From: Bacteroidia bacterium
Lineage (GTDB): Bacteria > Bacteroidota > Bacteroidia > 2-12-FULL-35-15
NCBI GenBank assembly: GCA_016786925.1
Contig: JAEUTU010000020.1
Coordinates: forward strand, 21,978-85,977
Length of the DNA stretch: 64,000 bases
Direction of reading: 5' to 3'
Made by a program: the position numbers. Shown here piece by piece: positions 57,001 to 60,000 of the stretch (the stretch's first letter is position 1; each line of letters begins with the position of its first letter).

Positions 57001-60000
57001 GGATATTAAAGAAATAACGGAAGCATTAGTTAAATTCAGAAACGAGCGCGATTGGGAGCAATTCCACAATTCAAAAGACCTATCATTGGCCATCTCCATT
57101 GAGGCAAATGAGCTATTGGAATTATTCCTGTGGAAGAATGCCGATGAAGCCAATAAAGAAAAATTAAAGGAAGAATTAGCTGATGTGCTTGCCTATTCAT
57201 TTCTTTTAGCAGAAAAACATGGCTTGAATGTAAAAGATATTGTTTTAGAAAAAATTAAAAAGAACGGAGAAAAATATCCCGTTGACAAAGCAAAAGGAAC
57301 TGCTAAAAAATACAATGAATTATGAGTCCAATCCAATTTTGTTCATTATATTTGCATGTTCATGATTCATGAACAAATCTAACTTGTGAACGAAAAATGA
57401 AAAGAAACCAAATTATCGATACTGCCACAAGGCAATTTGAAAACCTAACATCCTGGAAAATAAAAGTAAAGGAAACACCTACCTCAATTGACGAAGGTAT
57501 AGATGGGGAAATACATCTATTAAATCAAAGAACTAAGGAAAAACATGTCTTAATACTTGAACTCAAGAATGAAGTACGCACTAATGATATCCTGAAGTTA
57601 ATTGAACTCAAAAAAAAGTATCCGGATTTTTTTTTAATGGCTCAATATATCTCTAAGCCGAATCGCGAACAGTTAAGAGACCATCACATTAATTATTTAG
57701 AAACATCAGGAAACTGTTATATAGAAAAAGATTCTATTTATATATACATCGATAATCAAAAAGTAGAAGCTCAACGAAAAACAAGCAATAGTAAATTATA
57801 TACAGAAAGTGGGATGCGGTTTGTTTATGCAGGATTACTTAACCCAAATTTTGTGAAAGGGACTTACCGCGAAATTGCTGCAGAAGCAGAGATAGCTCTT
57901 GGAAATGTTCGTTTGGTTATGGATGCACTTGAAATGGAAGGTTTTCTGGAAACAAAAAATGGAAGTCGAGATTTTAAAAATAGAAATGAATTGTTTGATG
58001 TTTGGGCAAATAATTTTGGAGATACCATGCGCCCGCATTTATTACAAACTAGACTTGCATTTGCAAATAAGCAAAATGCGCTTACCTGGAAAAACATACA
58101 ACTGAAAAACGCTTTTTGGGGAGGAGAGCCTGCTGCAGCGTTGTTAGACAGCTATTTAATACCAGAACAGTTTACTATTTATAGCAACTACACACTGCAT
58201 CAAATGATGAAAGAATATAAATTAGTACCAGATCCCAAAGGAAATATCCTTTATATGCTTTCGCCTTTTAAACACAAAGAATTGCCAGAAAAAGCTGATC
58301 CGTTTTTAATTTATGCTGAGTTAATTCAAAGTAAAGATAGTCGTTGTTTAGAAGCAGCAAAACGTATTAAAGAAAAGTACATTGACACAAAATTCTAACA
58401 TATTTGATCCTGCTTTTGATGAAATACTCAGGCATGTTAACAAAGAAGCTACTGCTTTAAAAATTGAATTTTATTTAGCAGGTGCTGTTGCGCGTGACTA
58501 TCATTTGAATAAATTGGCAAATTATACTCCTTCTAGAAAAACTGCAGATATAGATATTGCAGTAATGGTAACATCAGAGGTTGAATTTTCTAAACTCAAG
58601 GAAAGTTTAATTCAAACGGGGAATTTTGAAGAACACAATGAGCCTATTAAACTAATTTATAAAAAAAGTATCGAGTTAGATCTACTTCCATTTGGAGATA
58701 TTGAAAAAGAGGGAATAACTACATTAACAAAGCCGAAAATTTTTGTTTTAGATATGCCAGGCTTTGCTATTCTAAACAAATATGCAGAGCAAGTCCAATG
58801 GAGTGATGAAGTAAATGCAAGAGTATGTTCCATTGAAGGTATTGTTCTTTTAAAACTTATTGCGAATAATGATAGACCTGAAAGAACAAAAGATTTGATT
58901 GATATACAACAAATTATTTTAATCTACTTTGAGGCGTTTAGCGATGATGTATACGAGCACCATTTCGATCTAATGGAAAAATATAACACTTCTGATAGAG
59001 ACTATATACAACAAGTCTCGGCTCATGTTATTGGACGTAAATTAAAAAAAGTACTTAATTCAGAAGAAGATTTAATGAAACGAATCATACATATTTTAAA
59101 GGATGATAAGGATTTATATTGGAAAAACATTTTGAGTGGTTTAACAGAATAGGTGATAAAAATAAATTATACATTCAGAAAATATTTGCTTTAAAGAGAT
59201 TTACTAATAAAAACTCAAAACATTAAAAACACTGCTAAAAAATACAACGAATTATAGTCTATGATCGTTTACCGTTCAACAAAAAAAGGATTTCAGGATG
59301 AGGTGGAAAGAGGCGATATCGATCTTACCATCGAAAAAAAATTCTTTGAAGTATTTCATAAGAGAACTACCGACAAAGAAGTTGACTCCTGGTGGAATTC
59401 CTTACATTATATGTCAACGGTTTTAAATGACCCAGAAATACCCGACAATACAGGAATTGCTATTGAGTGTCAGATCCCGCAAACCAACAAACGTATCGAT
59501 TTTGTAATTACCGGTACCGATGAGAACAACAAACCCAATGTTGTTATCATTGAATTGAAACAATGGAAAACAGCCGAATTAAGTGATAAAGACGGCATCA
59601 TAAAAACGGCATTGGGAAAAGGTGTGAGAGAAACTAGCCATCCCTCCTACCAGGCATGGTCGTATGCAACATTTTTACACGACTATAGCGAAACCGTTCG
59701 CAATGAAAATATCACCTTGAGTCCTTGCGCTTACCTTCACAACTATGTGGAAGATCAAGTTATTCGAAATCCTTTTTACAATAATTATTTAGATAAAGCA
59801 CCGGTTTTCTTAAAGCGTGATCCACACAAACTACGCGATTTTATAAAGCGCTATGTAAAAAAAGGAGACGATGGTGAGATCATGTACCGCATTGATTCAG
59901 GTAAGATCCGCCCTTCCAAACAATTGTCTGAAAGTTTGGCTTCCCTGCTAAAAGGAAATGCCGAGTTCATCATGCTGGATGAACAAAAACTAGTTTACGA

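Follow-up and report, generated by a model that had tools for sequence, protein, structure and literature searches.

An AbiE-like cassette between two copies of the mazG 3' end in a defense operon of a Bacteroidia bacterium

RESULTS AND DISCUSSION

Two copies of the mazG 3' end bracket the AbiE cassette

We analyzed a 64 000-nucleotide (nt) stretch of DNA from a Bacteroidia bacterium (assembly GCA_016786925.1, contig JAEUTU010000020.1, positions 21,978 to 85,977 of the forward strand), hereafter called the window. In this window, a putative toxin–antitoxin (TA) module of the AbiE type lies between a gene for a MazG-like hydrolase (mazG) and a gene for a DUF2075 helicase, and the end of mazG is repeated on the far side of the module. 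On balance, we consider that a self-contained AbiE cassette was inserted at the mazG/DUF2075 junction by short-homology recombination, with no dedicated recombinase involved. A TA cassette would then sit inside the stop/start junction of a translationally coupled two-gene defense operon with neither gene broken, and the locus would represent a base-pair-resolved case of defense-island remodeling without a dedicated mobile-element enzyme. The coordinates of all features are given in Table 1.

In the window sequence, mazG ends at 57299-57325 with ACT GCT AAA AAA TAC AAT GAA TTA TGA. The same nine codons recur at 59231-59257 as ACT GCT AAA AAA TAC AAC GAA TTA TAG, followed by TCT and then by the DUF2075 ATG at 59261. 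This pair was the top direct repeat of the window in a repeat search (25 nt, 96% identity, 1932-nt spacing), and gapped local alignment lengthened it to 30 nt, ACTGCTAAAAAATACAA[T/C]GAATTAT[G/-]AGTC (57299-57328 and 59231-59259), with one substitution and one 1-nt indel. The score of the gapped repeat was reached by none of 5000 shuffles. A 25-mer search with at most three mismatches returned exactly two sites in the window (0 expected from 100 shuffles), and with at most two mismatches exactly two sites in the whole 3.49-Mb assembly. The copies share no perfectly matching run longer than 17 nt, and their two differences are silent (Asn AAT/AAC and stop TGA/TAG). The initial annotation had reported that the last mazG codons recur before DUF2075 with silent differences only, and the sequence, the repeat search, the shuffles and the genome-wide uniqueness of the pair all agree with this description.

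The left edge of the repeat is sharp at ACT, and both repeat ends abut the cassette. Upstream of ACT in copy 2, the alignment showed no extension and tblastn found no further MazG-like sequence; therefore, copy 2 does not belong to a more extensive mazG pseudogene, a possibility that had been raised at the outset.

mazG and DUF2075 form the resident operon

We scanned species-representative genomes with the DUF2075 protein and obtained 80 loci (L021-L100, 54-85% identity), which span Bacteroidota, Proteobacteria, many lineages of the candidate phyla radiation (CPR) and one Methanobacterium metagenome-assembled genome. A MazG-like gene was located directly upstream on the same strand, with a gap of 0-100 nt, in 69 of these loci: the gap was at most 10 nt in 50 loci, 13 of which had a 4-nt ATGA stop/start overlap, and 11-100 nt in 19 more. 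To judge from gene order and spacing, mazG–DUF2075 appears to be a strongly conserved and often translationally coupled two-gene operon; among the papers searched, we found none in which DUF2075 and MazG are named together. Nhi and Nhi-like defense proteins consist of an N-terminal nuclease and a DUF2075 helicase (bioRxiv 10.1101/776245; 10.1101/2022.05.11.491447). The window gene is likewise a DUF2075 helicase with an N-terminal nuclease-like motif, namely a PD-(D/E)xK-like motif identified by eye in an N-terminal region of ~250 amino acids (aa). However, genes of this type differ in being nearly always preceded by a coupled MazG-like gene, and the PADLOC Nhi score of the window protein is weak.

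The window shows the canonical mazG–DUF2075 adjacency once the 1932-nt insert is taken out, and two genomes of the same genus display the corresponding empty site, which reads ...GAG CTA TAA ATG ATA GTA in G023 and ...GAG TTA TAA GT ATG ATA GTA in G015. The latter genome is collinear with the window over the Fer4 gene, the MlaD gene, ribBA, the RhuM/Fic gene, mazG and DUF2075, and has no AbiE genes. Nucleotide identity between the window and G015 is uniform at 80-86% in housekeeping and island genes (82.9% in mazG and 80.4% in DUF2075), and housekeeping proteins are 90-96% identical. Because of this collinearity and uniform identity, we regard the flanks of the AbiE module as vertically inherited resident DNA. 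The proposal of the initial annotation that mazG and DUF2075 were originally adjacent is thus well supported, both by the 69 of 80 loci and by the empty sites, of which that of G015 is fully syntenic.

A single 36-nt segment of G015 (1872-1907) aligned by blastn to both repeat copies of the window, which is the pattern expected of a duplication at an insertion site. Copy 2 is collinear with the native junction between the mazG end and the DUF2075 start of G015. The claim that AbiE represents an insertion at the mazG stop/DUF2075 start junction is accordingly borne out by the empty site of G015, in which one segment matches both copies. Copy 2 retains the native A-rich leader of a gene that is usually translationally coupled to mazG, which offers a plausible selective reason for the arrangement.

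In the mazG and DUF2075 genes of G015 (L015, equivalent to G015:C25, 1-2206), frameshifts and stop codons are numerous in homopolymer runs. Errors of sequencing or assembly are their most likely cause, and identities calculated from the proteins are lowered by them. A gene swap had been suggested by a DUF2075 protein closer to that of G023 and a mazG closer to that of G015. This signal disappeared at the nucleotide level, where G015 was closest throughout.

Composition of the AbiE cassette

The antitoxin gene comes first in the cassette, and abiEii overlaps abiEi by 17 nt. We found 133 homologues of AbiEi, the nearest with 80% identity, and AbiEii carries the nucleotidyltransferase (NTase) motif GAVARDY...TADIDIAV. 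In the 50-nt region upstream of abiEi, which has conserved GTTCAT/ATGAAC repeats, GTTCAT half-sites are present at 57341 and 57358 and GTGAAC at 57386, a palindrome GTTCATGA-T-TCATGAAC spans 57358-57374, and a Bacteroidota -7-like box, TATATTTG, lies within the operator at 57347-57354. The operator region folds as a hairpin (z-score -2.1). The strict Bacteroidota promoter pattern, TTTG-N15-24-TANNTTTG, had no match in 56.8-59.3 kb of the window.

At the sequence level, the cassette has the characteristics of an AbiE type IV TA system, with putative toxicity neutralized by AbiEi, putative GTP-dependent NTase activity and a putative abortive-infection phenotype. It resembles known AbiE systems in being a two-gene module with overlapping open reading frames (ORFs), AbiEi_2 and AbiEii domains and the NTase motif. 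It also has inverted-repeat operators upstream, like those reported for AbiEi autoregulation (PMC7319586). It differs from these systems in belonging to a divergent Bacteroidota clade, in the weak score of AbiEii (28 bits) and in being nested inside another defense operon. AbiEi probably binds the conserved operator. A 35-nt operator pattern recovers even AbiE loci at 33-37% protein identity, and the operator seems to be much more conserved than the AbiEi regulator. This 35-nt operator, GTTCATTATATTTG-N3-GTTCATGAWTCATGAACA, was observed in metagenome contigs (L109-L113) in front of abiEi genes whose products have no more than this 33-37% identity to AbiEi of the window.

Related cassettes and their mazG remnants

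We compared the closest AbiE modules, in which AbiEi is 63-80% identical to that of the window. Six related loci had a mazG gene or its 3' remnant directly to the left of abiEi, and two had DUF2075 remnants on the right. In L016, a full mazG is followed by AbiE, a 29-aa C-terminal remnant of DUF2075, a NUDIX gene and a PLD-helicase gene, and in L017 the cassette lies between a 14-aa mazG remnant and an 18-aa N-terminal remnant of DUF2075. A full-length mazG in L019 and a mazG of at least 61 aa, cut by the contig end, in L114 precede AbiE and then type I restriction genes, and L101 has a 33-aa mazG remnant before AbiE. Downstream of abiEii in L019, L114 and L101, no significant remnant of a mazG end or of DUF2075 was found. 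On the right side of L017, the alignment reaches 11 nt upstream of the ATG of the DUF2075 remnant, which could represent a degenerate copy 2 (P about 0.015-0.08). These remnants lead us to conclude that the cassette lived in mazG–DUF2075 operons of other lineages; it appears to persist as its neighbors decay, taking mazG-end remnants along.

The mazG genes linked to AbiE belong to a 112-aa subtype, whereas the window mazG belongs to a 109-aa subtype, as does that of G015; therefore, the full-length mazG of the window is resident rather than imported. In a tree of AbiEi and AbiEii, the mazG-linked cassettes formed two clades, and the cassette of G053, a genome of the same genus, was nested in the clade of the window on a long branch. 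The G053 cassette has a 701-aa ORF on one side and a gene read as encoding a MATE-type transporter on the other, and neither mazG nor a flanking repeat accompanies it. The family also occurs without mazG in the unrelated contexts of L104, L107, L115 and L118, and in L104 and L118 the cassette lies between unrelated genes. With its own conserved operator and its occurrence in unrelated contexts, the AbiE cassette appears to be autonomous. The homologue of the G053 insertion site in the genome of the window was not syntenic, so that it gave no second comparison of a filled with an empty site.

Searches of genome contigs with an AbiEi query and of metagenome contigs with an AbiEi alignment returned no related loci. 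A scan of metagenome contigs with the operator pattern yielded only distant AbiE loci (33-37% identity), all without mazG. Searches at the family and order levels covered no genomes beyond the 68 of the genus, and a 400-genome sample of the class contained no further close AbiE.

Among more distant members of the family, the AbiE cassette of L107 (301-2123) was observed next to a tyrosine integrase gene and a DUF6922 gene, and in L115, just downstream of position 4768, the cassette is directly beside a tRNA-like gene recognized by eye. These two loci suggest that some members of the family ride on integrative elements. Another observation concerns L019 (7757-7870) and L114 (2044-2160), which have in common a stretch of ~115 nt downstream of abiEii, the next gene being HsdM in one and HsdR in the other. 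At the end of this stretch is a TATATTTG box, possibly serving as a promoter that faces outward from the 3' end of the cassette.

The mazG 3' end as a boundary for defense cargo

Contigs L130 and L131, which come from other samples, encode a MazG protein 100% identical to that of the window and are 95-96% identical to the window at the nucleotide level in ribBA and mazG; they probably belong to the same species. In both, a different effector gene begins in an ATGA overlap with the mazG stop; it encodes a GIY-YIG + DUF2075 protein, the helicase part of which is only 26% identical to the window DUF2075. Homology to the window stops at 57327, two bases past the mazG stop. The gene after an unchanged mazG has thus been replaced between L130/L131 and the window, with a breakpoint at the mazG 3' end. 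A GIY-YIG-type partner follows mazG in two further genomes, and mazG is paired with at least two effector types, PD-(D/E)xK-DUF2075 and GIY-YIG-DUF2075.

The left side of mazG varies as well. The RhuM/Fic gene is present in G015 and absent in L130, the closest relative: L130:1796-1916 corresponds to window 55857-56916 and contains no RhuM/Fic, and similarity to the window starts again at the terminator-like hairpin that precedes mazG. This hairpin marks the left edge of the mazG segment that the window shares with L130 and L131 (the blastn match to L130 begins at window position 56917). Therefore, presence/absence polymorphism exists on both sides of mazG.

We further scanned all mazG-bearing loci (about 77) sensitively for extra copies of the mazG end, and found duplicated ends in two, namely the window and, as an independent case around a different insert, L033. 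In L033, an 87-nt direct repeat (4899-4985 and 6870-6956) brackets DUF2075 itself, leaving only 15 nt between the gene and the repeat on either side. It comprises the mazG 3' end and a 33-nt spacer, and its copies are 79% identical overall and 89% identical over the first 54 nt, which represent the mazG 3' end. The second copy has an internal stop, and a Shedu-like gene and an HpaII restriction–modification system are located downstream. Other genes are interposed between mazG and DUF2075 in CPR-type loci (a RadC-like JAB gene, L096:4063-4761 and L098:4295-4993) and in L090 (an HSDR_N-like gene, 1618-2706), none of which had duplicated mazG ends. The RadC-like gene was seen to overlap the mazG stop, as an operon member would. 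A further candidate, L128, was rejected because it ends in a palindromic assembly artefact.

The initial annotation had described mazG as an exchange point for defense cargo and had predicted different cargo between duplicated mazG ends in relatives. The boundary is real, as seen in L130/L131, in the remnants linked to AbiE and in L033. However, it does not generally come with duplicated ends, and the predicted arrangement was found in L033 as the only example besides the window. Since only 2 of about 77 loci are duplicated and other interposed genes lack duplications, we conclude that cargo exchange is real and that duplication is the exception. A short conserved gene end can therefore be a recurrent cargo boundary, which is useful for mapping defense-island hotspots. 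It is possible, though rather doubtful, that the mazG 3' end is a general docking handle, at which a constant MazG is kept and downstream effector cassettes (candidates are the PD-(D/E)xK-DUF2075, GIY-YIG-DUF2075, AbiE, RadC-like and HSDR_N-like cassettes) are swapped by short-homology recombination. If this were true, the duplicated ends of 30 and 87 nt would be scars of swapping, the duplicated end would keep the translation leader of the downstream gene, and insertion would be reversible by repeat-mediated excision.

Mode of insertion and alternative explanations

The resident state would have been a two-gene operon encoding a MazG-like hydrolase and a DUF2075 (Nhi-like) nuclease-helicase, the stop of the first gene abutting or overlapping the start of the second. 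In the lineage of this genome, a self-contained AbiEi/AbiEii cassette of ~1.9 kb with its own operator and promoter would have entered exactly at this junction and would have become flanked on either side by the final 30 nt of the mazG region. By this event, mazG would have kept its full 3' end via copy 1 and DUF2075 its native 29-nt leader via copy 2, so that both genes stayed intact. The donor DNA may have been a cassette with a mazG-end remnant, as found on related cassettes, which recombined through the short homology of the mazG 3' end. The route could have been either a Campbell-type single crossover of a circularized fragment or homology-facilitated illegitimate recombination (HFIR), each of which would duplicate only the shared segment. 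No dedicated recombinase would be needed, and the same boundary might serve other cargo swaps after an unchanged mazG.

Short-homology recombination at the mazG 3' end is the most likely mechanism in our view, because related cassettes carry the mazG-end homology that is needed, because no recombinase is present, because the duplications differ in length (30 and 87 nt), which suits recombination better than a fixed staggered cut, and because the G053 cassette has no duplication. A single crossover with a circular intermediate would be expected to duplicate the anchor alone. The window resembles HFIR and Campbell integration in having one short homologous anchor, the mazG end, beside non-homologous cargo; it differs in that this anchor would be very short, its 30 nt including a perfectly matching run of 17 nt. 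Seen this way, the event is a clean and fairly ordinary scar of gene shuffling in a defense island, and appears to involve no new kind of system. The locus is also suited to a test of whether addictive TA cassettes stay in place as the surrounding defense genes decay.

However, several points weigh against this explanation. With L130 as the reference for the resident allele, copy 1 has a single substitution, C to T at position 18, and copy 2 a single loss, that of one G in TGAG, and both share GTC at positions 28-30. Each copy is thus a single change away from the resident sequence and no foreign mazG end is needed; two ordinary mutations after duplication of resident sequence would explain the differences equally well. 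A maximum chi-square breakpoint test in mazG (G015-like versus L016-like sites) gave no significant signal (P = 0.13) and was disturbed by the frameshift errors of G015. The earlier suggestion that the silent differences are a sign of an imported mazG end thus has no advantage over duplication of resident sequence. Moreover, the mazG ends linked to AbiE encode Ser or Asn where both window copies have Thr (ACT), a poor fit to a Campbell model except with a more closely related donor. The G053 cassette, for its part, lacks any flanking repeat, precise deletion between repeats could have removed the cassette from G015, and we found no second intact mazG–AbiE–DUF2075 locus in 68 genomes of the genus, the 400-genome class sample and metagenome contigs. 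The mechanism is also inferred from end-products rather than observed.

The single changes from the L130 allele, the common GTC and the sharp repeat ends abutting the cassette on both sides would also be expected of a target-site duplication, in which a trans-acting recombinase, a transposase or a staggered break produced cuts ~30 nt apart at the junction and ligation of the cassette was followed by filling of the overhangs. We nevertheless consider this unlikely. Neither the cassette (57329-59230) nor the island (55.9-64.7 kb) nor the 10 kb of contig that follow contain a transposase or integrase gene, and comparison of the cassette ends by eye revealed no terminal inverted repeats. In addition, the same cassette family lacks a flanking repeat in G053, and the second example, L033, has a repeat of 87 nt instead of 30 nt. 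To our knowledge, a 30-bp target-site duplication is far longer than is usual for bacterial transposons. The cassette therefore does not look like the product of a transposon-type duplication, with neither a transposase nor, by eye, inverted termini and with no fixed length of duplication.

Integrative elements were also considered. SGI1-type islands at trmE or dusA reside at gene 3' ends, are flanked by attL/attR direct repeats and supply a replacement 3' end (bioRxiv 10.1101/2021.06.18.448947; PMC8409611). The window insert is similar to these in that direct repeats of a gene 3' end flank it and the target gene is intact. It differs in its size of only 1.9 kb, in having no integrase or excisionase in or near the insert, in a variable repeat length (30 nt, as against 87 nt in L033) and in a sister cassette (G053) without repeats. 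With no integrase, no fixed site and no repeat at the sister insertion, the cassette does not appear to be an attL/attR integrative element.

The polarity of the event could also be reversed: the cassette and its duplication would be older than the divergence from G015 and L130, precise deletion between the repeats would have produced the empty sites, and the similarity of copy 2 would have been maintained through gene conversion or through selection on it as the DUF2075 leader. Precise loss of this kind can occur between direct repeats 1.9 kb apart. Consistent with an old insertion, the window, L016 and L017, with AbiE proteins that are only 71-78% identical, have the same left junction (mazG stop, about 6 nt and then the cassette), and L017 may retain the degenerate copy upstream of its DUF2075 remnant mentioned above. 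However, the cassette is present at this locus in only 1 of 68 genomes of the genus, and L130, although 95-96% identical, does not have it. The repeat copies differ at 2 of 30 positions, compared with 4 of 27 between the orthologous mazG ends of the window and G015, and the mazGs linked to AbiE are of another subtype than that of the window. Taken together, these observations make an ancestral cassette improbable.

We think it quite unlikely that a mazG–AbiE module was placed upstream of a resident mazG–DUF2075 pair and that the second mazG was then deleted except for its last 27 nt, which would be copy 2. The recurrence of mazG–AbiE adjacency in L016, L019 and L114 agrees with such tandem modules, as do the remnants of 14, 33 and at least 61 aa, which indicate that deletions do nibble at mazG, and the second mazG-like gene downstream of DUF2075 in L028. 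It is, however, the full-length mazG of the window that is resident, with the same 82.9% nucleotide identity to G015 as its flanks and the 109-aa rather than the AbiE-linked 112-aa form. Moreover, an identical MazG protein occurs in L130/L131, which have no AbiE, and no mazG-like sequence precedes copy 2. Finally, an assembly artefact, in which a foreign AbiE contig was joined through a shared short repeat, is hardly credible even for a draft of 136 contigs, given that the copies differ from each other (their longest perfect match is 17 nt), that independent contigs of other samples have AbiE beside mazG ends and DUF2075 starts, and that the GC content of the cassette (30-34%) is in line with that of the island.

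Genes and other features around the insertion

Table 1. Positions of the AbiE cassette, its flanking repeats and the neighboring genes in the window
Feature	Position	Strand	Basis or remark
ribBA	54640-55854		Pfam/PADLOC gene order
RhuM/Fic-domain gene, PADLOC candidate PDC-S23	55909..56889	+	Virulence_RhuM 6e-31, Fic 1.8e-10, PDC-S23 5e-142
GC-rich hairpin and T run, terminator-like, upstream of mazG	56923..56957	+	Inverted repeat, 15-nt arms, 93% complementarity
MazG-like nucleotide pyrophosphohydrolase gene, 109 aa, intact	56996..57325	+	Pfam PF12643 6.2e-21
Repeat copy 1 (30 nt)	57299..57328	+	Last 8 mazG codons, TGA stop, GTC
Putative inserted AbiE cassette, ~1.9 kb: promoter/operator, abiEi, abiEii, 78-nt 3' spacer	57329..59230	+	Absent from empty sites G015 and G023
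AbiE promoter/operator	57341..57391	+	Conserved in 11 of 11 aligned cassettes
abiEi, 333 aa, putative antitoxin and transcriptional regulator	57397..58398	+	Pfam PF09952 AbiEi_2 9.1e-22, 78.4 bits versus cut-off 21
abiEii, 256 aa, TTG start, putative nucleotidyltransferase toxin	58382..59152	+	PF08843 2.3e-6, 28.2 bits versus cut-off 22.5; PADLOC AbiEii 4.4e-4
Repeat copy 2 (29 nt)	59231..59259	+	Non-coding; native upstream region of DUF2075, 1 nt before ATG
DUF2075/Schlafen-group-3-type helicase gene, 617 aa, Nhi-like, intact	59261..61114	+	PF09848 (SLFN-g3_helicase) 5.6e-108; PADLOC Nhi 5.2e-14
NUDIX hydrolase gene, PADLOC candidate PDC-S07	61186..61584	+	Pfam NUDIX 9.8e-18; PDC-S07 3.6e-49
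PLD-nuclease and superfamily 2 helicase gene, type IV methyl-directed restriction-like	61581..64000, past window end	+	ResIII 7.2e-42, PLDc_2 2.2e-12, mREase_IV 1e-190

In relatives, the intergenic regions between ribBA or RhuM and mazG are filled by palindromes that resemble repetitive extragenic palindromic (REP) sequences or miniature inverted-repeat transposable elements (L130:1800-1900; L015 about 2500-2830, minus strand). These palindromes read GTCATCCTGAAC...GTTTCAGGATC and GTCATTGCGAGGG...GAAGCAATCTCTT, and they are absent at the corresponding place of the window. On the right side, the PLD-helicase gene ends ~720 nt beyond the window; the island ends there, and housekeeping genes come next.

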